Shown here piece after piece: positions 7,284-64,000 of a stretch of DNA of 64,000 nt. The translations under genes and the position numbers were made by a program. Each line of letters starts with the position of its first letter. Positions within the stretch are counted from its first letter, which is position 1. Location of the stretch: the NCBI GenBank assembly GCA_937935255.1, contig CALGXT010000076.1:1658-65657 (forward strand), given 5' to 3'. The stretch is from an uncultured bacterium (lineage in GTDB: Bacteria > Verrucomicrobiota > Kiritimatiellia > PWTM01). The notes under the pieces are model-generated. The model was given only the letters and a program-made list of their open reading frames with translations. It made no database searches and was not told where the DNA came from.

Positions 7284-8971
7284 CGCGCCGTCGAACCCGC
7301 GGAGAAACGGGGGCGCCGGGCGCCGCGAGCGTCAGCCTGGCGGTGGCGGCGCTCGCGATCGCCTGCGCGTACCCGCTGCTTTTGCTGTTCGTCCAAAGTC
7401 TGTTTCCCAACGCGCTCGGCGGCGAGTGGAGCGGCTTCCTTTCGCCCTACCGCCGGTTGTTTTCGACGCCCGATCTCGCGCGCATGCTGGGCCATTCGCT
7501 TTCGTGGGCCGCCGCAACCACGGCGGTCGCCTGGTTCTTCGGCATCCCCTGCGGCTTCCTGCTCGCGCGCTGCGCCCTCCCCGGCAAGGGTTTCGCGCGG
7601 CTGACGATGCTCGCGCCGCTGATGACGCCGCCCTACATCGCGGCGCTCTCGTACGTCGTTTTGCTGCAGCCGGGCGGGTTCGGCGACCGGCTGATCGGCG
7701 TGCCCGAGCCGTTGCGGGACTGGTTTTTTTCGTTCCACGGCGTCACGATGGCGATGGCGCTGGCGTCGTTCGGCTATGTGGCGCTCGGCGTCGAGGCCGC
7801 GTTGTTGCGGTTGCCGCCGCGGATGGAAGACGCCGCGCTGCAGCTCGGCGCCTCGCGGCCGCGGCTCTGGCGCTCGATTCTGATCCCGCTGCTGTTGCCG
7901 GCGATCCTGAACACCGGTCTGCTGGTGTTCCTGGACGCGCTGTCGAATTTCGGGGTGCCCGCCGTGCTCGGCACGCGCGCGAATCTCGCGCTGCTGCCCG
8001 CCGAGATTTATCACCTGCTCACGAGCTGGCCCGTGGATGTGCCGGTCGCCACGGCCCTCTCTTCCCTGCTCTGCCTGCTGGCCCTGCTCTCGCTCCGCAT
8101 CAGCGCGGCGCTCACGCGCGGAAGCGGGAGCGCCGGCGGCCGCGCCGCGGGCGGACGTCTCGTGAAATTGAGCCCGGCGCGCGCGGCGCTCGCATGGCTG
8201 TGGATCGGCGGACTTTTCGTCTTGAGCACCGCGCTGCCCTACGCCGCGATGATCGCGATGAGCCTCGTGGACCGCTGGACCGACGGCGCGCCCGCCTGGA
8301 CGCTTCGGCACTACGGCGCGCTGTTCCGTCCGGCGTCGGGCGGCCGCGCCGCGCTGCTGACGAGCCTCGGACTGGCGGCGGCGGCGGCGACCCTGTGCGC
8401 GGCGGGCGGCGGCTTTGTCGCCTATGTCGCCGCGCGCAGCGGACGGCTCGCGCGGCGCGCGATCGAAGCGCTCGCGATCCTGCCGCGCGCGCTGCCGAAG
8501 ATCGTGATGACCGTCGGCCTCATTCTCGCCTGGAACGCCCCCTGGGTGCGCGTGAACCTCTACGGAACGCTCGGCATGCTGCTGCTGGCCTACGTCGTGT
8601 GCTACATTTCCGACGCGCTCGCCTACGCCGGCGCGGCGCTGCGCCGCATGAATCCGCGTTTGGAAACCGCCGCGCTGCAGCTCGGCGCCGGACGCGTCGC
8701 CGTGCTCGCGCGGATCGTCGCGCCGCAACTCGGCCCCGCCCTCGCGGCGGCGTGGCTCACCACCTTTATCGTGTGCGTCCGCGAACTGGTCTGCTCGATT
8801 CTCCTGCTGCCGCCGGGCGTCGAAACCACCGCGACCTTCATTTTCAATCAGTTCGAACAGGGCGATCTGTCTTCCGCAATGGCCATGGCGACCGTGACCA
8901 TCGGCGTGACGGCGACGATCCTGTTTCTCTTGCAGCGAACGCCGCTCTTCCGAATGAAAGGAGACGTATGA
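7280..8971 (+). CDS. ABC transporter permease, fused two-domain (FbpB-like)
   Basis: A 563-aa ORF starting MTRRRTRGE, overlapping the binding-protein stop (ATGA). It has two repeated TM6 permease domains, each carrying an EAA-like loop (EDAALQLGASRPRLW and LETAALQLGAGRVAV). Confidence 0.85.
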   Translation: MTRRRTRGETGAPGAASVSLAVAALAIACAYPLLLLFVQSLFPNALGGEWSGFLSPYRRLFSTPDLARMLGHSLSWAAATTAVAWFFGIPCGFLLARCALPGKGFARLTMLAPLMTPPYIAALSYVVLLQPGGFGDRLIGVPEPLRDWFFSFHGVTMAMALASFGYVALGVEAALLRLPPRMEDAALQLGASRPRLWRSILIPLLLPAILNTGLLVFLDALSNFGVPAVLGTRANLALLPAEIYHLLTSWPVDVPVATALSSLLCLLALLSLRISAALTRGSGSAGGRAAGGRLVKLSPARAALAWLWIGGLFVLSTALPYAAMIAMSLVDRWTDGAPAWTLRHYGALFRPASGGRAALLTSLGLAAAAATLCAAGGGFVAYVAARSGRLARRAIEALAILPRALPKIVMTVGLILAWNAPWVRVNLYGTLGMLLLAYVVCYISDALAYAGAALRRMNPRLETAALQLGAGRVAVLARIVAPQLGPALAAAWLTTFIVCVRELVCSILLLPPGVETTATFIFNQFEQGDLSSAMAMATVTIGVTATILFLLQRTPLFRMKGDV

Positions 8972-10299
8972 CCCCTTCGCGCACCAAGGATGTGAATCGC
9001 GCCGCGCCCGCGTCCTGGCGGCGGCGGGCCGTCGCGCTGACGCTGTGGATGCTGTGCGGCCCGGCCTTTGCGGCGGCGCAGATTTTCTTCAGTTTCCGAG
9101 CCGCCGATGGCGGCGGTCTCGGACGGATCGAAGTGGACGCGCAAACCGGTGATTTCATCGCGCAGGAGGCGGTGTATTCCGCGGCGACCGCGCGCGCCGC
9201 GTTCAAGGTCGCCCAATCGCCGGAGGGGTATGCCGCGTTGACCGTCAACGAACGCGGGCCCGAAAATTTCGTCTTTCGCGCGCCCGACGGTCGCGTGCGG
9301 ACGCTGTCCCTCCCCGATAAACTCGATGAAGTCCGCCTTCACGGTCGGCGCGCCCTCGTCGGCGGCGAAGAGGGCGGCGTGTACCTCGTTCGGCTGGACA
9401 CCGGGGAACTCGAGCGCTCCTGGAAGCTCGCGGAAGCGCTTCATCCGCCGGGACGACGGCCGGAAGATCTCCGGATCGAGCGCGAGGGCCGCCGGGCCTG
9501 GGTGACGCTGCAAAAGGACAGCAAAAAAGGGGATCGCGAGGGCCAGCGCGTGGTGTATCTCGACTTGGACAGCGGAGCGGCGCTCGCCGATTTGCGGCTG
9601 CCGCGGGATCGCGCCGACCTGCATTACGGGCGGGACGGCGATTTCCGTCAGCGCGGTCCGGGGCCGGAAATCGTGATGCCCTTCGAGTCCGCCGGCGTCC
9701 TGCTCGTCACGCTCGATTTATACGGGGCGATCGGATTCGCCGATTTGACGGAGGCCCGTCAAGGGCGCCTGACGAACTGGACCGTCCTGCCCACGGCGCC
9801 GGATGGGAGCTGGGGCGCGGCCTTCCCCGATCGCGTAGCCGCGTTCGCCGCGGGCGGGCGCGAATTCGCGCTTGTCCTCAACGCCGGCGCGGCGGGCGGC
9901 GCGGCGGTCGCCGACGTGGCGAAGCGGAACATCGTGCAACGGTTGGCCGCGGGGCACGGTCTTTCCACGCCGGCGTTTGTTCCCGCCGCGCGCGCCGTCG
10001 TCGCCGCGAGCGGGGGCAAACTCAAGCGGCGGGGCGCCGAAGATGTGGAAAAAACCTTTCATCCTCGGGCTGAAATCGCGGTGTTCGATCTGACCGAGGA
10101 GGGCGGTCCGCTGGCGCTGCGCGTCGCGCCCACGGGCGATCCCGCGCATGCGCTGCGGCCCGTCGCTCCGGAATCGAGCGCGCTGATCCTGGTCAATGTC
10201 GGCGAATCGGCGGACGCCTGGCTGGTCATGGACATCCGCGACGGACGCATCCTCGGACGCCGCCCGGCGCTCGGGCGCGTGGAACGTCTGGCGCCGTAA
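8968..10299 (+). CDS. secreted hypothetical protein, translationally coupled to the iron ABC permease
   Basis: The ORF starts MTPSRTKDVNRAAPASWRRRAVALTLWMLCGPAFAAAQ, a signal peptide with a Tat-like RRR. Its ATG overlaps the permease stop. About 443 aa with no recognised domain. Confidence 0.55.
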   Translation: MTPSRTKDVNRAAPASWRRRAVALTLWMLCGPAFAAAQIFFSFRAADGGGLGRIEVDAQTGDFIAQEAVYSAATARAAFKVAQSPEGYAALTVNERGPENFVFRAPDGRVRTLSLPDKLDEVRLHGRRALVGGEEGGVYLVRLDTGELERSWKLAEALHPPGRRPEDLRIEREGRRAWVTLQKDSKKGDREGQRVVYLDLDSGAALADLRLPRDRADLHYGRDGDFRQRGPGPEIVMPFESAGVLLVTLDLYGAIGFADLTEARQGRLTNWTVLPTAPDGSWGAAFPDRVAAFAAGGREFALVLNAGAAGGAAVADVAKRNIVQRLAAGHGLSTPAFVPAARAVVAASGGKLKRRGAEDVEKTFHPRAEIAVFDLTEEGGPLALRVAPTGDPAHALRPVAPESSALILVNVGESADAWLVMDIRDGRILGRRPALGRVERLAP

Positions 10300-52400: not shown

Positions 52401-53497
52401 GGGACCCTCGAATCCTGCGCCTGCCACAGCGCGCGCGCGTCCTCGATCCAGGAGGGCGACAAACCGCTTTTCGAGCGCCGTCGGAACGGCGCGCGTTCGA
52501 GCAGCAGACACAGTCGGCCGGCCGCGCGCCATCCGACGGCGCGCGCCAGTCTCCGAACCATCCGCCCCCCGCGGGTTTCACCGCCGGCCTTCGCCGAAAG
52601 GCCGAGCAGAGCGTCGGCGGCCGCGGACAACCCCATCGCTCCGACGCGCCGCGCGAGGGCGAACGCCCATCGCGCGAAATGCCGCATTTCCGGCGCGTCG
52701 CACGGAACTCCGGCGCGCCGCGCGCAATCGAGCAGCCGCGGCAGGAATTCGGCCTCTTGCGGCAGATAGCTCTCCACTGCGGCGCCCGTGATGCGGTGTC
52801 CTTCGTGATAGCGTTGGCAGGACAACGTCTCCGGAACAAAGACCAGCCGCGCGCCCAACGCGCCCGCCCGCGCATCATAGTCCCAATCCTCCGGCCGCGA
52901 AGCCCGCCAGGGGCCGATGCGGTCGCAAAGCTCCCGGCGATAGAGCGGCGTGTGGGTGTGCCACCAGCGATCCACCAGCAGCGCCGGGAAAAGCCGCTCG
53001 AAGGAACGACCGGTCCATTTGCTCGGTTCCCGAAGCTTCGCCCCGTCCGCGCCGATCAGCCGGGACTGACCGTACGCAATATCGCATTCCGGGTGGGAAA
53101 TCAGAGCGGCGACCTGCGCCTCGAACTTGCGCGGCAACAAAAGATCGTCGCTGTCGAGGTATTGGATGAATTCACCGCGCGCCAGCCGCCGGCCCGTCTC
53201 GCGGGCAAGCCCCGGACCGCCGTTTTCCCGCCGAACGGCGCGGACGATCTCCGGCTGCGCATGCTCCCATTCGCGAAGACGGTCCCACGTGTCGTCCGTG
53301 GAACCGTCATCCACCAAGATGATTTCGATGGGCCGATAGGTTTGCGCGAGGACGCTGCGCACCGCGTCGCCCGCCATCCATCCGCGGTTGAAGACCGGAA
53401 TGACGGTTGAAACCAATCCCGGCACGATGGACGCCGGCGCGAACGGCAGCGCTTCCGTCCGGCCTTCAGCCCCCGCCGAATATTGCGCGGTTTCCAT
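52397..53497 (-). CDS. GT2 family glycosyltransferase
   Basis: VSTVIPVFNRG, ILVDDGSTDDT and YLDSDDLL are present. Confidence 0.8.
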   Translation of the reverse strand: METAQYSAGAEGRTEALPFAPASIVPGLVSTVIPVFNRGWMAGDAVRSVLAQTYRPIEIILVDDGSTDDTWDRLREWEHAQPEIVRAVRRENGGPGLARETGRRLARGEFIQYLDSDDLLLPRKFEAQVAALISHPECDIAYGQSRLIGADGAKLREPSKWTGRSFERLFPALLVDRWWHTHTPLYRRELCDRIGPWRASRPEDWDYDARAGALGARLVFVPETLSCQRYHEGHRITGAAVESYLPQEAEFLPRLLDCARRAGVPCDAPEMRHFARWAFALARRVGAMGLSAAADALLGLSAKAGGETRGGRMVRRLARAVGWRAAGRLCLLLERAPFRRRSKSGLSPSWIEDARALWQAQDSRVP

Positions 53498-53500
53498 CGG

Positions 53501-54700
53501 CTACTCCGGAATCAGCCCGGCCCAGGCCGCCCATTCGCGGGTCGCCCGCATTCCCTGGTCCAAATCATAGGCCGGCTCAAATCCCAGCCGGCGGCGCGCT
53601 TTTTCGATCGAAACGCGCGCCGGCGACGCCATGAGCTCCAACTGTATCGGACGCGGAAGCCGCAGGGGGCGCCCCGGAGCGGACGGGGCGGCGCCGCCGC
53701 GTTTCATCCACCGATCCTTGGCCCGCTCCCAACGGGCGCGGGGAAGGAGGGCGCGCGCGAGCGCATACGCCTGCGCAAGCGCCGGCAAGGCCAGGATCGT
53801 CTGACGCAGGTCGCCGTCGGACCGAAGCCGGTGGATCAGCCGCCGAAACGGACGGGCGGATTTCGCCTGCGCGTTCAGCTGGGCGCGGACGCTCGCCGTG
53901 TCCATCGCGAGCAGGGACGACACGCCGAGCATCCGCTCATACGCGCCATAGAAATCCAGCCAGGTCGGCGGTTGTTCACCGGAAATCAGAAACGCCTCGC
54001 CCTCCACCGCCTCGGCAACCGCCGCGCGAAAGATGGCTTGAATCACATCGTCCAAATAGACGGCATTGCAGATTCCCTGTCCCCGCGCCGGCAGAACCAC
54101 AATCCCTTCGCGCAGCTGGCGGAGCGGGCCCACGGTCCATCCGGCGAAGGGCCCATACACCACGGTGGGCTGGAGGATCACCGCCGGCAACCCGTCTTCG
54201 CGCGCGAGCCGCAGCAGTTCCCGTTCGCCGGCCTGCTTGCCGGCGCCATATGGATCCGCGCCGGGACGGCGCGGCGCGCTTTCATCCAGCGTCAACGCCC
54301 GCACGGGGCCGTACACGGAAATCGTGCTCAGATGCACCAGCCGGCGCGCCCGGCGGCGGCGGACGGCGGCGGCGATCGAGTCGGCCATTTCGCGAGCCGC
54401 GCGGACGCGCTCCGCACGGTTTCCCTCCGCCGGATACGTCAAGTCCACGACGATATCGCCTTCCGAGATCGCCCGATCCAGGATTCCGGCGTCCCGAACA
54501 TCGCCGGAGACGATCCGGATCGGGAAGCGGGCCGCACGCGCCGCCTTCGAGAGCGTCCGAACCACGGCGACCGTCTCGACGCCCAATTCGCCGGCGAGCG
54601 CTTCGACGACACGGCCGCCGATCACGCCGCCCGCGCCCAGCGCCACGATCCGGGAACCGCGCAGCGCTTCGGCAACGGCGGACATCGCGAGCGCTCTCAT
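53501..54700 (-). CDS. NAD-dependent epimerase/dehydratase family protein
   Basis: The Rossmann motif (IVALGAGGVIG) and a YxxxK (PYGAGK) are present. The probable start is MRALAMSAV. Confidence 0.75.
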   Translation of the reverse strand: MRALAMSAVAEALRGSRIVALGAGGVIGGRVVEALAGELGVETVAVVRTLSKAARAARFPIRIVSGDVRDAGILDRAISEGDIVVDLTYPAEGNRAERVRAAREMADSIAAAVRRRRARRLVHLSTISVYGPVRALTLDESAPRRPGADPYGAGKQAGERELLRLAREDGLPAVILQPTVVYGPFAGWTVGPLRQLREGIVVLPARGQGICNAVYLDDVIQAIFRAAVAEAVEGEAFLISGEQPPTWLDFYGAYERMLGVSSLLAMDTASVRAQLNAQAKSARPFRRLIHRLRSDGDLRQTILALPALAQAYALARALLPRARWERAKDRWMKRGGAAPSAPGRPLRLPRPIQLELMASPARVSIEKARRRLGFEPAYDLDQGMRATREWAAWAGLIPE

Positions 54701-55719
54701 GCACCGGCTCCGATCAGCGGACGCTCCCATACCCCGGCGACGGTTCGCCGGCGGGCATAGGCCTCTTCGATCAGGCGAATGGTTTCCCGCGCCTCCTCGG
54801 CGGCGGCGATTTCCGCGGGTTGGCGGCGGATGGCCTTCAACCAATTCTCCGCTTGTTCTTCGAAAAGGGTCACCCAATCCGGCGCCGAGTCCATCGCTCC
54901 TTCGACCGTTCCGGCGAGTCCGGTCTTCGACCGCGAGGGGGTCAATGTTGCCCGATGGTTGAGGGGTTCAACGTCCAACGTGGCGCGGGAACCGCGCAGC
55001 ACGCACCGATTGCGGAGATCGCGCAGACGGCTCAGGCGGATCGTCCCTTCCGCGCCGCACAGCGATCGCACGCGCATCTCGCCGTCGGCCTCGACGCCGC
55101 CCGCGGCGTCATCCGCATATTCCACGAGCGTCAAATCGCCCAGCCAGCAACGCAGCATATCCAACACATGGGCGCCGGTATCCATGAACACACCGCCTCC
55201 GGCCGTCTCCCGGCGAAAAAAGAAATCCGAGGCCGCCGGCCAACGGTAAACACCGCCCTCCTCCACTTCAAACGCGGCAATATCGCCGAGCAGACCGGCG
55301 GACAGCCAATCGCGCACCGCGCGCACTGCAGGCAAATAGCGGCGCACCTGGGCGACCGCGAGGACGCGTCCGTTTTCGCGGGCCGCGGCGATCAGCGCGT
55401 CGCAATCGGCGACCGTGTTGGCGAGGGGTTTTTCCATTAGAACATGTTTGCCCGCGCGAAGCGCGGCGATTCCAATCGTGGCATGCAGATGATGCGGGAG
55501 CGCCAACACGACCGCGTCAACGCCATCCAGCATTTCTTGAAAATCGGCGACCGCGCGCGGCACGCCGAATTGCGCCGCCAAAATCCGCGCGCGCTCCAAC
55601 GCCGGATCGGCGAGGGCCGCCACCCGCGCGCCGGCGACCCGCCGCAAGGCCGGCAGATGGTACCGGGCGGTCACGGCGCCGCATCCGACCACCCCGATTT
55701 GAATTGAGTCCACGGTCAT
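54697..55719 (-). CDS. Gfo/Idh/MocA family oxidoreductase
   Basis: The N-terminal motif is IQIGVVGCGAVTARYHLPAL. The EKP motif (VLMEKPLA) is present. Confidence 0.85.
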   Translation of the reverse strand: MTVDSIQIGVVGCGAVTARYHLPALRRVAGARVAALADPALERARILAAQFGVPRAVADFQEMLDGVDAVVLALPHHLHATIGIAALRAGKHVLMEKPLANTVADCDALIAAARENGRVLAVAQVRRYLPAVRAVRDWLSAGLLGDIAAFEVEEGGVYRWPAASDFFFRRETAGGGVFMDTGAHVLDMLRCWLGDLTLVEYADDAAGGVEADGEMRVRSLCGAEGTIRLSRLRDLRNRCVLRGSRATLDVEPLNHRATLTPSRSKTGLAGTVEGAMDSAPDWVTLFEEQAENWLKAIRRQPAEIAAAEEARETIRLIEEAYARRRTVAGVWERPLIGAGA

Positions 55720-55846
55720 ACCACTGCGATTCCGGGGGCTGTTCCATCCGGCGCGGAAAACCCACCGCGAGCTTCCCCCTGTTGGTTGGACAGGCGGCGG
55801 GGTGATATAAGCAAAGATTCCATGCGCCATCAATCGTCCATATTAG

Positions 55847-56212
55847 CCTCCCTACGGCGGCCGGCGCTGGTACGACGCGGCCTCGCTCGCATGGCTGACC
55901 CCCGACCCCATCGGCGAGCGCGGCGTCAACCTCACCGCCTTCTGCGACGGGAACCCGGTGAACATCGTGGATCCGCCGGGGCTGGCGACGATGGATTTCG
56001 TTTTGGACTACGATCCGGAAAACGGATCAAATGTTGGCGGTTTTGCGCCGCTGTCCTTGGTGAAAAGCCCAAATGGATTTGTCGAGCGGGACGGATGTTC
56101 CCGATTGGCGGCGCTGGAGGCCGGCCACGGCGCGGGAGTCGGCTCACCGGCGTCGTGTGAAATCCGGCGATGTCGGCGGCGCACGCCTGACAGTCTTGTC
56201 GGAAGCCCGTAG
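55847..56212 (+). pseudogene. orphan C-terminal fragment of an RHS/YD-repeat polymorphic toxin (core-end DPxGL motif plus ~75-aa variable tip)
   Basis: An in-frame translation directly after a TAG stop gives PPYGGRRWYDAASLAWLTPDPIGERGVNLTAFCDGNPVNIVDPPGLATMDF... This aligns with the conserved Rhs core end (RYYDP..GRF...DPIG..GG.NLY.Y..NNPVN..DPLGL). There is no ATG and no upstream Rhs body. The tip region is about 50% GC against a background of about 68%. Confidence 0.6.
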
Positions 56213-56354
56213 CATGTGGGTAAAGCTTTGTAGCGTCATCCGCCGATGCGGCGTAGGAAGCCGGAGGCCTTCCGACAAGCGAGGTGAGCGGCGAGAGGTA
56301 TGCGCAAACCGTCGCGATCGGGACGGCGTCACATCAAATTCTCCGTCCCTGTCC

Positions 56355-59054
56355 CTACTCCGCGAGAAATTGGCGAAGGACGTAGGGGAGGATGCCGCCG
56401 TGGCGGAAATATTCCGCTTCGACGGTGGTGTCTATGCGCGCCTTTGCTTGGAAGCGAATTGCGCGGCGATCGGACTTGACGGCCTCCACTTCGATCATGC
56501 CGCCCGGCGTGAGGTCGGCAATGCCGCGAAGGTGAATCGTTTCGCTGCCGTTCAGTCCCAGTGAATCCGCGGTGGCCCCCGCGGGAAACTCCAAAGGCAG
56601 CAGACCCATCCCAACCAGATTGCTCCGGTGGATGCGTTCATAACTTTCGGCGATCACGGCGCGAACCCCGAGTAGCGCCGGCCCCTTCGCCGCCCAGTCG
56701 CGCGAAGAACCGGCGCCATACATTTTGCCGGCGAGCACCACCAGCGGGACGTTCTCGCGCCGGTACGCTTCCGCCGCGTCAAATATCGTCATAACAGCGC
56801 CATCCGGCCAATGCCTCGTCCAGCCGCCTTCACGATCGGCTAAACGATTGCGCAATCGCACGTTGGCGAATGCGCCTCGCATCAGCACTTCATGGTTGCC
56901 GCGCCGCGCGCCATACGAGTTGAAATCGGCGGGCGAGACACCCTGCTCGATGAGATAGCGCCCGGCGGGGCTATCCTTCGGAATCGAACCCGCCGGCGAG
57001 ATGTGGTCGGTGGTCACGAAATCGCCGAAATAGCCCAGCACGCGGGCGTTTTCGATATCGCCGCGAGGCGCAGGCGCCGGGGTGAAGTCGGCGAAAAACG
57101 GAGCTTCGCGGATATAGGTCGAATTCGCATCCCAGGCATAAACGTGGTTCTCCGTCCCTTTCAGCGCGTTCCACGCGGGACTCACATCGCTCAGCCGCCG
57201 GTAGGTGTCGAGGTAGTCTTCCGGGGATAGCGCCGACGCCACGGCGACGCGCAATTCGCTGTTATCCGGCCAGATATCGCGTAAATAGACGGGCTTGCCG
57301 TTCGTGTCTGTCCCCAAGGGTTCGTCGCCGAGATTGGCGCGGACCGTTCCGCGGAGCGCATACGCGATCACCAGCGGCGGCGAACAGAGGTAATTGGCGC
57401 GCGTGAGCGGATGGATGCGCCCTTCGAAGTTCCGGTTGCCGCTCAAAACCGCGGCGGCGACCAGGCCATTTTCACGAATCGCGCGCTCAATTTCGGGATC
57501 CAGCGGGCCGCTGTTGCCGATGCACGTGGCGCAGCCGTATGCGGCGACGTGAAAGCCCAGCGCTTCGAGATCGGCGAGCAACCCGGCTCGCCGCAAATAC
57601 GCAGTCACGGCGCGGGAGCCCGGCGCGAAGCTGGTCTTGACCTGCGGCGGCACGCGCAGCCCGCGCGCCCGCGCCTTGCGCGCCATCAGCGCCGCGCCGA
57701 TCATCAAGTCGGGGTTCGAAGTGTTCGTACAGCTTGTGATCGAGGCAATGACCACTGCGCCTTGTTCCAGCGCCCCCTGGGGGCCGAGGTCAACTCGACG
57801 GTTCGCCGCTTCCGGCGAAATACCGAATCCCTTGCGCTCGGCGGGCGCGGTCAGCGCGCGCTCGAATTCGCGCCCCACACGGGCCAGGGGAAGGCGGTCT
57901 TGCGGCCGCCGCGGTCCGGCGACGGAGGCCTCAACCCGATTGAGATCAATCTCCACGACGGCGGAATACTCGGGATCGGGCCGCCCGGGTTCCCGCCATA
58001 AGCCTTGCGCTTTGGCATACGCCTCGACGCGCGCGATGTGGGCGGGATCGCGCCCCGTTTCGCGCAGATAGGCGAGCGTGGAGGCGTCCATTGGGAAAAA
58101 CCCCATCGTCGCCCCATACTCCGGCGCCATGTTCGCCACCGGCGCGCGGTCGGCCAGGGGCAGCGTGTCCAGCCCCGGGCCAAAAAACTCCACGAAATGC
58201 CCCACCACGCCCTGGGCGCGCAATGTCTCTGTCACCGTCAACGCCAGGTCGGTCGCGGTGGCGGGGCTGCGCAGCCGCCCCACGAGCCGCACGCCCGTCA
58301 CCGGCGGCGGCGTGAGGGGGATGGGCTGCCCCAGCATCGCCGCTTCGGCCTCGATGCCGCCCACGCCCCAGCCGAGAATGCCCATGCTGTTGATCATCAC
58401 GGTATGCGAATCGGTGCCGACGACCGTGTCGGGCGCGGCGACGACGCGGCCTTCGGCGTCGCGCTCGTCAAACCGCACGCCCTCCGCGAGGTATTCCATG
58501 TTCACCTGATGGCAAATCCCCAATCCCGGCGGCAGCACGCGCAATCGGGCAAATGCTCGCTGTCCCCAGCGCAGAAACGCGTACCGCTCGGCATTGCGCT
58601 CAAACTCTTTTTCGATGTTCGCCTCGAACGCGCGCGCGGACCCCGCCTCGTCGAGTTGCACCGAATGGTCAATGACCAGATCCACGGGTATGAGCGGCTC
58701 GACGCGCCGAGGATCCCCGCCGGCGCGAGCCAGCGCGCCGCGCAGCGCCGCGAGATCCACTACGCACGGCACGCCGGTGAAATCCTGCAAAAGCACGCGC
58801 GCCGGCAAAAACGGTATCTCGCCGCCGCCGGGATTCGCCGGCGACCAGCGCGCGAGGCTTTCTACGTGTTCCGGCGCGAAGCCCGGCCGCTTCATTCCCT
58901 GTCCCCGCAACACCGTCTCCAGCAGGATGCGCAACGAATAGGGCAAACGAGCGATCCGTCCCCAGCCGAGCTCCTCGATGACGGCGATGCGATAATATCG
59001 AAAAGAACCGGATCCGGCTTCGAGCTCGGCCAGGGCGTTGGGAATCGTCTTCAT
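56355..59054 (-). CDS. acnA: aconitate hydratase A
   Basis: About 900 aa. Conserved aconitase family stretches include GVVGTDSHT, SCTNTSNP and the 4Fe-4S ligand Cys residues. The ORF starts MKTIPNALAELEAGSGSFRYY. Confidence 0.95.
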   Translation of the reverse strand: MKTIPNALAELEAGSGSFRYYRIAVIEELGWGRIARLPYSLRILLETVLRGQGMKRPGFAPEHVESLARWSPANPGGGEIPFLPARVLLQDFTGVPCVVDLAALRGALARAGGDPRRVEPLIPVDLVIDHSVQLDEAGSARAFEANIEKEFERNAERYAFLRWGQRAFARLRVLPPGLGICHQVNMEYLAEGVRFDERDAEGRVVAAPDTVVGTDSHTVMINSMGILGWGVGGIEAEAAMLGQPIPLTPPPVTGVRLVGRLRSPATATDLALTVTETLRAQGVVGHFVEFFGPGLDTLPLADRAPVANMAPEYGATMGFFPMDASTLAYLRETGRDPAHIARVEAYAKAQGLWREPGRPDPEYSAVVEIDLNRVEASVAGPRRPQDRLPLARVGREFERALTAPAERKGFGISPEAANRRVDLGPQGALEQGAVVIASITSCTNTSNPDLMIGAALMARKARARGLRVPPQVKTSFAPGSRAVTAYLRRAGLLADLEALGFHVAAYGCATCIGNSGPLDPEIERAIRENGLVAAAVLSGNRNFEGRIHPLTRANYLCSPPLVIAYALRGTVRANLGDEPLGTDTNGKPVYLRDIWPDNSELRVAVASALSPEDYLDTYRRLSDVSPAWNALKGTENHVYAWDANSTYIREAPFFADFTPAPAPRGDIENARVLGYFGDFVTTDHISPAGSIPKDSPAGRYLIEQGVSPADFNSYGARRGNHEVLMRGAFANVRLRNRLADREGGWTRHWPDGAVMTIFDAAEAYRRENVPLVVLAGKMYGAGSSRDWAAKGPALLGVRAVIAESYERIHRSNLVGMGLLPLEFPAGATADSLGLNGSETIHLRGIADLTPGGMIEVEAVKSDRRAIRFQAKARIDTTVEAEYFRHGGILPYVLRQFLAE

Positions 59055-59140
59055 GAGAAAACCTTTCACAGGCAAAACGGCGCGCGATGATAGGGCGGGG
59101 CCGCCGATCCGTCAAACCCGGCCGCCATCGGAACTTGCGG

Positions 59141-59194
59141 TTTTTTCCAAGGCTTGGAAGAATGAGGCCGTCCATTTTCCAAACCTTGGAAAAA
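59141..59194. repeat. pair of palindromic repeats TTTTTTCCAAGGCTTGGAAG / TTTTCCAAACCTTGGAAAAAG (locus D)
   Basis: Located in the divergent region between the aconitase and ROK kinase starts. The spacer is 14 nt. Confidence 0.8.
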
Positions 59195-59224
59195 GCGGCG
59201 TCCGACGCCGGGAAGCGGAACACG

Positions 59225-60202
59225 ATGGCGACAGCGAATCTGAAAAAAGCGGTGGGCATTGATTTCGGCGGGACGGAAACCAAACTGGCGCGCGTCAACG
59301 AGCGCGGCAAGGCCGAAGCCGCCGCCTCGTTTCCCACCGCGGAAGCGCCGGGCCCGGATGCCTGGATCGCGGCGGTCGCGGCGGCGCTACCGCAGCTGGG
59401 CTTATCGAACGAGCCGGAAACGTTGCGGCGTGAAATCGTCGGCATCGGGATCGGCGCGCCGGGCTTCACGGATTTCGAGCGCGGCTATATTTACGATCTC
59501 ACGAATGTGCCCGGCTGGAAGGCCGTGCCGTTGGCCGATCGAATGGAAGCTCGGTTCGGCGTGCGCACACGGGTGGACAACGACGTCAACGCCATGGCGA
59601 TGGGCGAATGCACATTCGGCGTCGGACGCCTCTATCAGCACGCGGTGTTTGTCACCCTCGGCACGGGCGTCGGCGGCGGCTTGCTGATCCACAATCGGAT
59701 CTATCGCGGCGCGCACTCGATGGCGGGCGAGATCGGCCACGTCTCCATTGACCTCAACGGCATCCGCTCGCCGCAGGGGGTGGGAGGGCTGGAACAATAT
59801 GTCGGCAACCGCGCGATCGTCGAGCGCGCCGCGGCGGCGTTGCGCGCCGGCCGCGCGAGCGCCTTGCGCGAGCGTTACGCCGGCGACTTTTCCCGCCTCA
59901 CTCCGCGCGACATTGCCGCCGCGGCGACCGCGGGCGACGCATTGGCGCTCGAGGTTTTCGATTTCGTGGCCCTCTGTCTCGCGACCGCCTTCGCCTCCAT
60001 CGCCTATCTGCTGCAACCGCAGGTCATCATTGTCGGCGGCGGCGTGGCGCAAGCCGGGCCGGTGCTTTTCGATCCGCTCCGGCGGCATTTGAAAGACCGG
60101 CTTTCGCCCTTGTTTTACGACCGCATGGATGTGCGGCCCGCGGCGCTCGGGGCGGCGGCGGGCGTCATCGGCTGCGCAGCGCTTGCGCTGGCGGAGTCTT
60201 GA
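59225..60202 (+). CDS. ROK family protein (sugar kinase, glucokinase/N-acetylglucosamine kinase-like)
   Basis: The ATP-binding motif VGIDFGGT is present. The ROK signature region contains GHVSID. Confidence 0.8.
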   Translation: MATANLKKAVGIDFGGTETKLARVNERGKAEAAASFPTAEAPGPDAWIAAVAAALPQLGLSNEPETLRREIVGIGIGAPGFTDFERGYIYDLTNVPGWKAVPLADRMEARFGVRTRVDNDVNAMAMGECTFGVGRLYQHAVFVTLGTGVGGGLLIHNRIYRGAHSMAGEIGHVSIDLNGIRSPQGVGGLEQYVGNRAIVERAAAALRAGRASALRERYAGDFSRLTPRDIAAAATAGDALALEVFDFVALCLATAFASIAYLLQPQVIIVGGGVAQAGPVLFDPLRRHLKDRLSPLFYDRMDVRPAALGAAAGVIGCAALALAES

Positions 60203-60240
60203 CGTTTTTGACAAACTTTTTTGCGGCGGTATGTTGAGCA

Positions 60241-61365
60241 ATGAGAATATACCGCCCGTCGGCGCGCCTTGCGGCTGTTTCGCTTCTCTTCGCCGTCCCG
60301 GTGTGGAAAGCGACCGCGGACGAGAGATCAACGCCAACGCCTCTCGAATCCGGCGCGATGTCCGAGGGTCATTTTCCGGCGCCATCCAGCTCGCCCGCCG
60401 CTCCGAGTCCGGCCTCCACGCCGTCGGCCCCCGCCTCGGTGAATCCTTCCGGCTTCGCCGGCAGCCATGTTTCTTTCGGTCTCGCGGATGGGCTCATTCG
60501 CGTGGCGCGCGGCGGCGAGTGGCTGCTGCTGGCCAACCCGCGTTTCATGGCCAGCGACGACGACGAGCAACTTTATGGTTTGGGTTTCATTTTCCGCCGC
60601 CGTCCCGGCGAGGGTATTCGCCAATCGCTCTTTCTCCGGTTCGATGTGCGAAACACGCCGGGCGACAATTGGTACACCACGACCTCCGGCGGGTTTGAGC
60701 ATCGCGGCGCCCTATGGACCGGGCGTCTGCGCGGCTTCATTTCGCCGCATGGCGCCGACGTGGTCGAGCGGCGCATCGAGGAGGAGGAAGTCCGGCGTCC
60801 CGACGGTTCCACCGACACGATCCGCCGAACCTTCGAGCGGCTGGAAATTCCGCTGACCGGCGCCGAAGCCGAGGGCGGTCTTCGCATCCCGTTGCCGCCC
60901 TTTTTGGGCGACCTGCGGATTTTCGGCGGCGCGCATTATCGCGACGGTCCGAGTTTCGATGCGCAGTCGGGTTGGTTGACGCGGACGGAATACCGGCCGC
61001 GGGAGCGGTTCTCGTTCGAATTCGCGGCCTACTTCAACCGGGATTTTACGGAAGTCGAGTACCTCTTCGGGGTTCGCGCCATTTTCCCGTTCGGAACCGG
61101 CGGCGGAGGAAACGGCAAATCCATGGGCGGCGAACACTTCTGGTTCGAGCCGCCGCCGTTCAACCCCCGCGCGGTTTCGGGGAAAAGCGCCTCGGCCCGC
61201 CGCAGCAAGGAACAGGTCGTCGGCACGAAACCGCCGCCGCCGCCGCCATCCATGGCGCCGAAGTTCGACGGCGATCAACCCTCCGATCCCGATTTGCCCC
61301 CCGATACCGAACCGCCCGACGGCCCGGATTTGCCGTATGATCCGGATTCTCCGGACTGGAGATAA
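60241..61365 (+). CDS. secreted hypothetical protein with proline-rich C-terminus
   Basis: The ORF starts MRIYRPSARLAAVSLLFAVPVWKATA, a signal peptide. A Pro/Ser-rich linker follows. The tail carries PPPPPPP and PDxP repeats. No family assigned. Confidence 0.5.
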   Translation: MRIYRPSARLAAVSLLFAVPVWKATADERSTPTPLESGAMSEGHFPAPSSSPAAPSPASTPSAPASVNPSGFAGSHVSFGLADGLIRVARGGEWLLLANPRFMASDDDEQLYGLGFIFRRRPGEGIRQSLFLRFDVRNTPGDNWYTTTSGGFEHRGALWTGRLRGFISPHGADVVERRIEEEEVRRPDGSTDTIRRTFERLEIPLTGAEAEGGLRIPLPPFLGDLRIFGGAHYRDGPSFDAQSGWLTRTEYRPRERFSFEFAAYFNRDFTEVEYLFGVRAIFPFGTGGGGNGKSMGGEHFWFEPPPFNPRAVSGKSASARRSKEQVVGTKPPPPPPSMAPKFDGDQPSDPDLPPDTEPPDGPDLPYDPDSPDWR

Positions 61366-61691
61366 GAAGAACAAAAGGAAAAAGCGCAGGGAAAAGCTCG
61401 ACGGCGCGCAAACGATTCTCAGCGGCTGAAATTGAGAATCACAACATTCGTTTCAGCGCCCACGCGGCGGGAAGCAGCAGCGCCAGCAAAGAGCCGGCGA
61501 ATCGGAAAAGCGAAAAGCTCCGCCGCCGAACGAGACACCGCGGCGGCGGCAAGCCCGGGCGACTCCGGTAAAGAGAGCCCGCCTGGGCGTGAGAGCCTCC
61601 ATAAATATCGCCGATGCTTCTGGCGTTCATGCCGCTTCTCATCCTCAAAGCACGCCAGAACATACATCGGATTATGTCTGCCGCAAGCGAC

Positions 61692-62111
61692 TCAACCGTT
61701 TTCTAACAGACGCATCGCCTTCTCGATGTCGTCCACCCGCGCGATGACCATCCCTACGGGCACCCTCGGGCTGCTGGCGCAATAACAGTACTCGATGTTC
61801 ACGCCATTCGCGCCCCACAGCTCCGCGACGGCGCCCAGACCGCCCGGACGGTTGCCGATCTCCAGCCACAACACTTCTTTTTCGAAGAATAGATGGCCTT
61901 CTTTCCGCAGAACCTCCATCGCCCGGTCCGGCGCATCGGTGACCATCCGGACGTAGCCATGCTCGATGCCCTCGGCCAGCGTCAGCGCGTAAATATTGAC
62001 GCCGGCATCGCCGAGCAACCGGCAGACGCGCCCCAACGTTCCCGGCCTGTCTTCCAGAAAGACGGAAATCTGTCGTCCCTTCGAGAACTCGATTCCTTTG
62101 CCTTTGTTCAT
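61692..62111 (-). CDS. ACT domain-containing protein
   Basis: A 139-aa ORF with two ACT-like units (ISVFLEDRPGTLGRVCRLLGDAGVNIYAL and LWLEIGNRPGGLGAVAELWGANGVNI). Confidence 0.7.
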   Translation of the reverse strand: MNKGKGIEFSKGRQISVFLEDRPGTLGRVCRLLGDAGVNIYALTLAEGIEHGYVRMVTDAPDRAMEVLRKEGHLFFEKEVLWLEIGNRPGGLGAVAELWGANGVNIEYCYCASSPRVPVGMVIARVDDIEKAMRLLENG

Positions 62112-62335
62112 CGCACCCTCTCCCGAAACGGCGGCCTGCCGCGCGCCCCTCTTTTACACGCCGGTTATGGGGACAGGCAAGCGATCAGGTGAATGCGGCG
62201 GAAGGGAGCGGCCCTTTGCTTCGGTTGAAGCGGCAGATATTGGGACACGGATATAGGGACAGGCAATTTTCCGCCGGGGCTTCAGGCATGTTCGTGCGTG
62301 ACGGCGCCGCGGCCAAAAGGCAGACTGCGGCCCGC

Positions 62336-63916
62336 ATGAACGAGCGAATGCAACGCCGTCGCCGAGCGCGCCGGTTTTTTGGGCGCTGCTGCGGTCTTCT
62401 CGCGGTCGCCCTGCCTTGGATGCGCGGCGAGCGGCCTTTGCCGCCCGGCGTTTCCCTCGCGGGGCCGCCGCGCCCGCTGGGAGCCGATGGCGCCCGACTG
62501 TTGCTCGACCGCACGGTGTGGGACCCCGACACCGCTGCGCGCCGCATCGAGCAGGAAATCTTCGAAACCGTTTTGCGCCGGATTGGGGAAGCGCGCCGCC
62601 TGCTGGTCATGGATTGGTTTCTTTGGAACGGCTGGCGGGGCCGCGGCGCGGAGTTTCATCGCGATATTTCCGCCGAACTCACAGCGGCGCTGATCGAAAA
62701 ACGGCGCGCTTCGCCGGATATGGATCTGCTCGTTCTGACCGACCCGATCAACCGCATTTACGACGGGCATGAGGCGGCGGACCTTCGCGCGCTGCGGGAC
62801 GCCGGCATCCCGGTGGTGTATACGGATGTCAACCGTTTGCGCCCCACCAACCGGGTGTTCACGCCGCCGGCCGAATTCTTCGCTCCGTTGTTCTCGCGCG
62901 TCGGACCCCTGCGCCGATGGGCCGACCGGCCTCGCATCAAAAACCCGTTCGATATCGCGGAACCGCCGATCAGCGCGCGCCAGATGGCGCGGCTTCTGCA
63001 TTTTCGGGCCAATCATCGCAAACTTCTGGTGGCGGACGACGAATCCGGCGCGCTGCGCTTGCTCATCGGCAGTTTTAATCCCTCCAGCGCCAGTTCCGCC
63101 CATGTCAACGTAGCGCTGGAATGCGGGGGCCCCGTTGCGTTGGACGCGTTGGCGTCCGAACTGGCTGTCATCGAATGGTCGCTGGCCGGCGACTATGCGC
63201 CGCCGGCCGCCGAAACGCAGCGGGCGCGGGAGACCCTCGATCGCATTCGCCGGCGCTGTCTCGCGGAAATCGCGGCGCTGCCGGCGGCCGACGCCCAAGT
63301 CGAAGGCCCCCGCGTTCAATGGCTCGGCGAAGGGGCCATTCACCGCCGGCTGCTGGAGCGGTTGGACGCCCTGAGGTCGGGCGACGAGGCGCGGGTGGCC
63401 TTGTTTTATCTCTCGGATCGGGCCGTCTTGCGCGCGTTGCGCGGCGCCGCCCGGCGCGGCGCCCGTATTCGCCTGATTCTCGATCCCAATCGGGACGCCT
63501 TCGGCCTTGAGAAAAACGGCATCCCCAATCGTCCGCTCGCCGCGGGACTCGCGGCCTACGGCGCGCGCGCGGGGCGAAATCTGATGATCCGGTGGGCGGA
63601 CACGCACGGCGAGCAATTCCATGCGAAAGCCGTCCTTTTCACCTTCGCGGACGGCCCGCCGGAGCTGTTGGCCGGCTCGGCCAATTGGACTTCGCGCAAT
63701 TTGCGCGACCGTAACCTGGAGGCCAATGTGTTGGTGATCGGCGACGCCGCCGTCGCCGCGCGTTTCGCGGATGCGTTCGACGCGGCCTGGGAAAATCGCC
63801 CGGGCGGACTTTGCCGAACGCGCGAATATGCCGCCTTCGCCGAATCGCCCGCTGCGCGCCTCTGGAAAGCGCCGCTGGGTTATCTCCAGGAGGTCACCGG
63901 CGCTTCGTCCTTTTGA
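62336..63916 (+). CDS. phospholipase D-like family protein (two HKD-type motifs, membrane-anchored)
   Basis: There is an N-terminal hydrophobic anchor (FFGRCCGLLAVALPWM). The first HKD motif is HRKLLVADDE...GSFNPSS and the second is HAKAVLFTF...GSANWTSRNL. The true start is uncertain (62288-62348). Confidence 0.7.
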   Translation: MNERMQRRRRARRFFGRCCGLLAVALPWMRGERPLPPGVSLAGPPRPLGADGARLLLDRTVWDPDTAARRIEQEIFETVLRRIGEARRLLVMDWFLWNGWRGRGAEFHRDISAELTAALIEKRRASPDMDLLVLTDPINRIYDGHEAADLRALRDAGIPVVYTDVNRLRPTNRVFTPPAEFFAPLFSRVGPLRRWADRPRIKNPFDIAEPPISARQMARLLHFRANHRKLLVADDESGALRLLIGSFNPSSASSAHVNVALECGGPVALDALASELAVIEWSLAGDYAPPAAETQRARETLDRIRRRCLAEIAALPAADAQVEGPRVQWLGEGAIHRRLLERLDALRSGDEARVALFYLSDRAVLRALRGAARRGARIRLILDPNRDAFGLEKNGIPNRPLAAGLAAYGARAGRNLMIRWADTHGEQFHAKAVLFTFADGPPELLAGSANWTSRNLRDRNLEANVLVIGDAAVAARFADAFDAAWENRPGGLCRTREYAAFAESPAARLWKAPLGYLQEVTGASSF

Positions 63917-64000
63917 ATCGTTTCGACGCGCCGGCGGCGCGGGTTCGCGCCAAGCGATCGCGGCCGGATCGGCTATGTTCGCGGCGGGTGCACTCGCCGC

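Follow-up and report, generated by a model that had tools for sequence, protein, structure and literature searches.

The window analysed here is a stretch of 64,000 nucleotides of a metagenome-assembled contig in which the large open reading frames represent housekeeping or carbohydrate genes. Two minus-strand genes lie 635 nt apart, and the gap that separates them holds an open frame on the plus strand (55847-56212) that carries the end of an Rhs core. The features of this gap and its surroundings are collected in Table 1. The oxidoreductase gene on one side is the first gene of a sugar-modification operon and its ATG at 55719 lies only 128 nt from the fragment; a gene is also called at this position in the sister assembly L058. 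The AcnA protein encoded on the other side is 100% identical to P0002 and 99.9% identical to P0123, and it assigns the window to a Kiritimatiellia/Verrucomicrobiota-like MAG. No synteny was found at the interval in relatives with a 70-76% identical aconitase. Scans for promoters and terminators around the fragment gave nothing meaningful and an Rfam search returned 0 matches. An AT-rich stretch (55805-55846) separates the oxidoreductase start from the 5' end of the fragment. Its minus strand reads TTGATG, an 18-nt spacer and TATATC, which could serve as the promoter from which the divergent sugar-modification operon is transcribed; no call was made there by the scan tool. In the sister assembly, a gene pair encoding an encapsulated ferritin and a Linocin_M18 (encapsulin) protein is located at L058:1534-2708, approximately 3-4 kb beyond window position 64000.

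Table 1. Features in and around the gap between the oxidoreductase and aconitase genes (window coordinates)
Feature	Position	Strand	Basis and remarks
Gfo/Idh/MocA oxidoreductase gene	54697-55719	-	Pfam PF01408/PF22725/PF02894; divergent from relic
5' truncation point	55844-55851	+	TAG 55844-55846; homology to intact cassettes starts at ca. 55847-55853 (blastn, alignments)
Rhs core-end relic, YGGRRWYDAASLAWLTPDPIGERG-VNLTAFCDGNPVNIVDPPGL	55852-55984	+	Last 45 positions of TIGR03696
First ca. 12 tip codons (ATMDFVLDYDPE)	55985-56020	+	Rhs frame kept; ended by +1-nt insertion at ca. 56017-56021
Tip linker, TDQMLAVLRRCPW, stop, KAQMDLSSGTDVPDWRRWRPATARESAHRRRVKSGDVGGARLTVLSEAR	56022-56210	+	+1 frame relative to the open frame 55847-56212; tblastn to P0145 aa 145-207
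Missing segment of ca. 86 nt (L062 1355-1452; P0145 aa ca. 208-240)	56210-56224	+	DNA alignment; second frame change
Last recognisable linker piece, third frame, SFVASSADAA, stop, EAGGLPTSEVSGERYAQTVAIGT	56224-56325	+	blastn, tblastn; one-codon deletion
Aconitate hydratase AcnA gene (acnA)	56355-59054	-	Pfam PF00330/PF00694; convergent with relic

The open frame begins with the end of an Rhs core. Its translation (55847-56209, 121 codons) is exactly as quoted in an earlier note on this DNA; the frame is closed by TAG 56210-56212 and TAG 55844-55846 lies directly upstream. As that note stated, there is no in-frame ATG in 55847-56212 and the first in-frame start is GTG 55958. The motif DPIG...NPVN...DPxGL, which the note had taken for the Rhs core end, lies within a match of residues 3-46 to TIGR03696 (Rhs_assc_core) that reaches 42.7 bits (E = 6e-11) against a curated cutoff of 32.5 bits and covers profile positions 32-76 of 76. 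The lack of any such profile match, which the note had named as evidence that would overturn its reading, was thus not observed. In profile searches of the kind it had proposed, TIGR03696 recovered the core end while Pfam gave nothing with either the 121-aa translation or the 84-aa translation from the internal GTG. Residues 3-46 also align with the final ca. 45 residues of the solved TcC/Rhs cores of YenC2, TccC3 and Salmonella bongori Rhs, and the core boundary reads NPVNIVDPPGL. A six-frame motif scan found no second core end in the 64-kb window, and no YD shell is present there either, in agreement with the lack of an upstream RHS shell stated in the note. The profile and solved-core matches, combined with the lack of a second core end in 64 kb, indicate that the motif is real and not a chance occurrence.

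The core-end relic belongs to a recognisable subfamily and has drifted from it. A search of the 121-aa sequence against 5.8 billion proteins returned a match to the core end only (P0001). The peptide patterns WLTPDPIG and NLTAFCDG, scanned against GTDB species genomes, yielded 54 loci and, of the window DNA, only 55852-55989 matches them, at 75-86% nucleotide identity; by blastn, the relic is 75-86% identical to 8 core ends of other genomes. The closest subfamily core end has the pattern YYGHRWYDAA.LKWLTPDPIGERGG.NLTAFCDGDP.N.VDPLGL and precedes unrelated tips that are 266-296 aa in length. The relic has a GC content of 0.70/0.57/0.93 by codon position. It carries a one-codon (3-nt) deletion near 55925 and alters residues conserved without exception in 7 relatives (Y to G, H to R, K to A, one G lost, D to N, and L to P in DPxGL). 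dN/dS between the window copy and these relatives is 0.13-0.46 compared to 0.03-0.16 among the 7 relatives themselves which, within the limits of this small sample, would fit relaxed constraint. Decayed fragments of this subfamily are also found in L008, L011, L031 and in the second cassette of L063, which is itself interrupted (WLTPIPLASAAAPT followed by a stop). Two tandem core ends, 82-84% identical to the relic at the nucleotide level, are located at L006:473-607 and 2837-2971 on a contig binned as Desulfuromonadales. They are unusually close for different phyla, which suggests horizontal cassette transfer or a binning error.

The ca. 75 residues following DPPGL had been described as resembling nothing known and indeed found no relative as a protein. 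Against 1.84 billion representative proteins, the tip gave a single match to a TPR protein, which we rejected as a homologue since its score is inflated by a repeated DPENxxNLGxYA motif. No relative was found in JGI metagenomes, and a comparison with all fetched loci and 120 Rhs proteins gave noise apart from an 11-residue match at the junction. This match, ATMEFDLDYDP after DPLGL compared to ATMDFVLDYDP after DPPGL in the window, pointed to P0145, an intact 427-aa relative encoded on metagenome contig L062 that was found via a longer core-end query from a relative.

Comparison with this intact relative at the DNA level and in several frames resolved the identity of the tip. Window positions 55852-56209 align with L062 995-1354 at 81% identity (293/361) and 56224-56324 with L062 1455-1558 at 73% over 104 aligned positions. 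When P0145 is searched against the window by tblastn, three matches are obtained in three successive frames (55853-56023, 56022-56210 and 56263-56325), that is, homology extends over more than one frame and is broken by disabling lesions. The first match lies in the open frame (P0145 aa 88-145, 74% identity), the second covers P0145 aa 145-207 at 82.5% identity, with a joint E-value of 7e-46 for the two, and the third covers P0145 aa 255-275 in the third frame (76% identity, E = 4e-5). The first frame change is due to an inserted nucleotide (window CCGGAAAACGG, L062 CC-GAGCACGG), in agreement with the tblastn frame switch at 56022/56023. In the true frames, two stop codons interrupt the sequence, TGA 56061-56063 and TAG 56254-56256, where L062 has TGG and TAC, respectively. 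The reference for these lesions is not the true ancestor but relatives from other organisms with only 81% identity; the ca. 86-nt gap, for example, could instead be an insertion in the P0145/L063 lineage, even though L063 shares the segment. After frame repair, the window translation shares 79% identity with P0145 and 70% with L063, and the Arg/Trp-rich linker is conserved at the protein level in L063 too. No counterpart of P0145 aa 1-87 is present upstream of the fragment by either tblastn or DNA alignment, and the rest of the window gives no tblastn match to it either. At the other end, homology stops at aa 275 of 427, 30 nt short of the acnA stop, and P0145 aa 276-427 have no tblastn match anywhere in the window. 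A 14-nt inverted repeat (56195-56208 and 56266-56279, 93% complementary) brackets the site of the ca. 86-nt deletion and TAG 56254; its arms are far less complementary in L062, and the segment 56195-56279 folds no better than shuffled sequences (z -1.0 to -1.7).

Because the linker lies in shifted frames, ca. 63 of the 75 tip residues are an out-of-frame reading, and the protein searches with the tip came up empty for this reason. The apparent lack of resemblance is therefore an artefact of the wrong frame, the DNA showing 81% identity with an intact cassette across 361 aligned positions. Likewise, the proposal that the tip represents a new toxin domain does not hold, as only ca. 12 residues after DPPGL are in the true frame and the remainder is out-of-frame linker. 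By our own estimate, made without a dedicated tool, the chance of a stop-free run of 64 codons at 62% GC is roughly 0.15. A reading based on codon statistics, with 55985-56095 as an in-frame tip and the rest as non-coding DNA, was overturned by the L062 alignment, which places the end of the true frame at ca. 56020 and extends the tip-derived DNA to 56324.

The substitution pattern follows the frame of the intact gene and not the open frame. Relative to L062, substitutions in the first tip segment are distributed over P0145-frame codon positions 1/2/3 as 9/5/20-21 (p = 0.003) and those in the second as 5/1/19 (p = 2e-5). Read in the open frame, the first segment gives 20/9/5, the opposite of a coding pattern, which argues against a stand-alone small peptide or new toxin produced as 84 aa from GTG 55958 or as 121 aa via a non-canonical start. 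The 122 open codons and a codon log-likelihood of +0.36 over 55985-56095 in this frame would agree with such a product, but 56096-56209 carry no coding signal, the gene calls of L058 skip the region, no convincing ribosome-binding site was seen by eye before 55958, and no tip homologue exists in the 1.84 billion representatives (the spurious TPR match aside), the 5.8 billion proteins, Pfam or JGI. AlphaFold prediction of the 121 aa gave a mean pLDDT of 36.9, which weighs little since a single sequence was used. The 84-aa toxin-tip peptide suggested in the earlier note would consist of 9 core-end residues followed by mostly out-of-frame sequence for which there is no homologue, and we consider a product of either kind highly improbable.

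The low GC content noted for the tip is a local feature. Over 55985-56095 it amounts to 52%, which is among the lowest ca. 1% of 111-nt windows with ca. 26 other mostly intergenic spots being equally low, whereas the whole tip-derived stretch 55985-56324 has 62% compared to a window mean of 66.5%. L062 and L063 have a GC content of 54-57%, so the dip fits the composition of the cassette family, which taken alone is weak evidence. The closest relatives are found on other, lower-GC metagenome contigs, consistent with the foreign origin implied by the horizontal acquisition that had been proposed.

An independent assembly reproduces the lesions, indicating that they are real and not assembly errors. 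L058 (ENA ERZ6863929) is 99.79% identical to window 52516-64000, with 24 SNPs over 11.5 kb and 0 between 55631 and 57635, so the whole gap with all lesions is present in both. No gene is called in L058 between the oxidoreductase gene and acnA. Single-base indels are a frequent assembly error and the contig is metagenome-assembled, so the frame might be part of an intact longer gene broken by an assembly or sequencing artefact, or its motif might be due to chance. This is extremely improbable: L058 is identical across the gap yet differs at 24 other sites, the TIGR03696 score exceeds the curated cutoff and, as there are at least 8 separate lesions, two of them truncations, fixing one indel restores no gene. 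Moreover, the 128 nt up to the divergent oxidoreductase start leave no room for a shell. Frame correction does lengthen the gene to 56324, which goes halfway towards an outcome that the earlier note had named as refuting its reading, but the result is still not an intact gene.

Intact relatives of the fragment are short Rhs-CT cassettes with exchangeable C-terminal domains. P0145 contains the full 76-position TIGR03696 domain (73.9 bits), and the general layout of P0145-type proteins is a conserved N-terminus of ca. 25 aa, a core end of ca. 100-105 aa closing with DPxGL, a linker of ca. 200 aa and a toxin domain of ca. 100 aa. A small ORF 3' of the intact cassettes is probably the immunity gene. 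The hydrophobic N-terminus M.FV.A...F..FGW.APD.A.AMIPRD..SVIA is conserved in L062:735-2018, L004:9740-11002 and L063:1221-1667, with only ca. 100 aa of core end after it. Cassette genes of this Rhs subfamily have the look of independent 'mini-Rhs' genes rather than of orphans truncated at the 5' end. The ca. 200-aa linker is 66% identical between L063:2-964 and L062:1131-2018 and leads into a TNT (PF14021) NAD-glycohydrolase domain in L063 and into an uncharacterised domain of ca. 100 aa (ITVIGSR.DTLAAKGWPGHNVLDVP.WTAKGNIKWLDSAIRRGDEIYLATDP...) in P0145. As the same linker precedes different toxin domains, it represents a shared module. The C-terminal domain of P0145 has no Pfam or NCBIfam match; it recurs in L064-L067 with 78-97% identity and is located behind a different Rhs core end in L066.

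For a 349-aa core-end query, the 120 best homologues (P0124-P0243) all range from 198 to 602 aa in length, with no full-length Rhs protein among them; many of their contigs are short, so some proteins may be cut by contig ends. Several of them lie in one 4.24-Mb Phycisphaerales contig. In L004 (MAG CALLML01), a 339-aa ORF on the minus strand (8821-9840) is arranged head-to-head with the Rhs-CT cassette, overlapping it by 100 nt. It is no homologue of Gfo/Idh/MocA proteins and contains an ADP-ribosyltransferase exoenzyme domain instead (PF03496, E = 7e-15). A ROK kinase 68% identical to that of the window is found 4.5 kb away in L004.

The C-terminal parts of such cassettes are missing from the window. 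Neither the domain common to P0145 (aa ca. 325-427) and L064-L067 nor the TNT domain of L063 is present, and the 172-aa candidate immunity ORF located 3' of P0145 in L062 has no tblastn match. The absence of an immunity gene reported from first inspection is borne out, with no immunity-sized ORF fitting into the 142 nt between the stop of the open frame and that of acnA. These losses bear on the idea of a silent but usable orphan Rhs-CT cassette, with which a full-length rhs gene elsewhere could recombine via ca. 135 nt of core-end homology to gain a new tip. A class of orphan rhs-CT modules is known that lack signals for translation initiation but keep sequence ahead of DPxGL (Poole et al., 2011, PMC3150448). 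The core-end block shows 75-86% identity to cassettes of other genomes, and the locus is fixed in two assemblies. However, the window copy has nothing useful to donate, as it has neither a toxin domain nor an immunity gene and a frameshift and two stops disrupt its linker. In addition, the site is not an rhs locus (64 kb without a shell or other core end), a double crossover would need downstream homology of which there is none, and even the core end has changed at positions invariant in the family, making a usable cassette distinctly unlikely. Of the displaced or orphan toxin cassette first proposed, the origin from an Rhs C-terminal cassette is retained while an intact tip is lacking and the toxin domain has been deleted.

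Overall, 55852-56324 is very probably a non-functional pseudogene fragment of a short P0145-type Rhs-CT toxin cassette. Judged by its sequence, the fragment reflects the ordinary decay of a gene rather than a new toxin, with no product, toxin or immunity expected from it. A complete cassette or rhs locus would formerly have been present at the site, or a piece would have been inserted there, with erosion following. Deletion has removed the 5' part (at least 87 codons) and the whole toxin and immunity end from the window copy, of which the last 45 core-end codons and about 140 codons' worth of linker are left. Its further lesions are the +1 frameshift, the loss of ca. 86 nt, the in-frame deletion of two codons and, in the true frames, two nonsense codons. 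Of the 122 codons of the open frame, ca. 57 are in the real frame, and the remainder are open by chance in a shifted frame. A variant of the pseudogene reading, which we regard as very unlikely, is that a gene of a little-described mini-Rhs class once occupied the site of the relic and that the dead copy persists because the neighbouring genes make use of its DNA; if so, it might provide, for example, promoter spacing for the oxidoreductase operon or part of the acnA 3' region. On this reading, members of the class (ca. 370-600 aa, with swappable toxin domains) may be expressed and delivered without a YD cocoon.

As a pseudogene fragment, the relic indicates that an Rhs-CT cassette was once present, or that part of one was taken up, in this Kiritimatiellia/Verrucomicrobiota-like lineage, and it adds one more decayed fragment of this kind. 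It also calls for caution in GC-rich DNA, where a frameshifted pseudogene may remain free of stops over more than 60 codons and mimic an orphan domain without homologues. The intact short cassettes with their conserved N-terminus and modular tip are of more interest than the relic itself.

Compared to known Rhs systems, the window copy retains only the boundary region. The YD-repeat shell of full-length Rhs proteins usually exceeds 1000 aa. No such shell (PF05593 / TIGR01643 / PF25023) is found in the fragment or the 64-kb window, and neither a toxin domain after DPxGL nor a downstream cognate immunity gene is present. A TIGR03696 core ending in PxxxxDPxGL does exist, but only for profile positions 32-76 of 76. 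Orphan rhs-CT/rhsI modules ('silent cassettes'), reportedly first described by Jackson and colleagues in 2009, are closer in that the window copy likewise keeps the 3' end of the rhs core, DPxGL and tip sequence with no start codon or other initiation signals and no YD shell. [quoted passage not shown] In contrast, the window copy stands alone between the oxidoreductase gene and acnA with no full-length rhs within the 64-kb window, and its CT is frameshifted, interrupted by the ca. 86-nt gap, TGA 56061 and TAG 56254, truncated at the 3' end before the toxin domain and without rhsI. In the TcC/Rhs cocoon, the core end forms a plug with an aspartyl autoprotease (YenC2 4igl/9c4k, TccC3 4o9x/6h6e, Salmonella bongori Rhs 8qjb). 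Both Asp-Pro motifs, DPIG and DPPGL, whose aspartates we take to be the putative catalytic residues of this autoprotease, are still present in the window copy, which has no cocoon to sit in. The P0145-type short cassettes comprise those of L062, L004 and L063 along with numerous 'RHS repeat-associated core domain-containing proteins' of 200-600 aa in metagenomic bacteria, the PVC group included. While the window copy is without the N-terminus, full TIGR03696 domain, toxin domain and downstream small ORF of intact members, it shares with them the same core-end subfamily and, after frame repair, the same linker at 79% identity to P0145.
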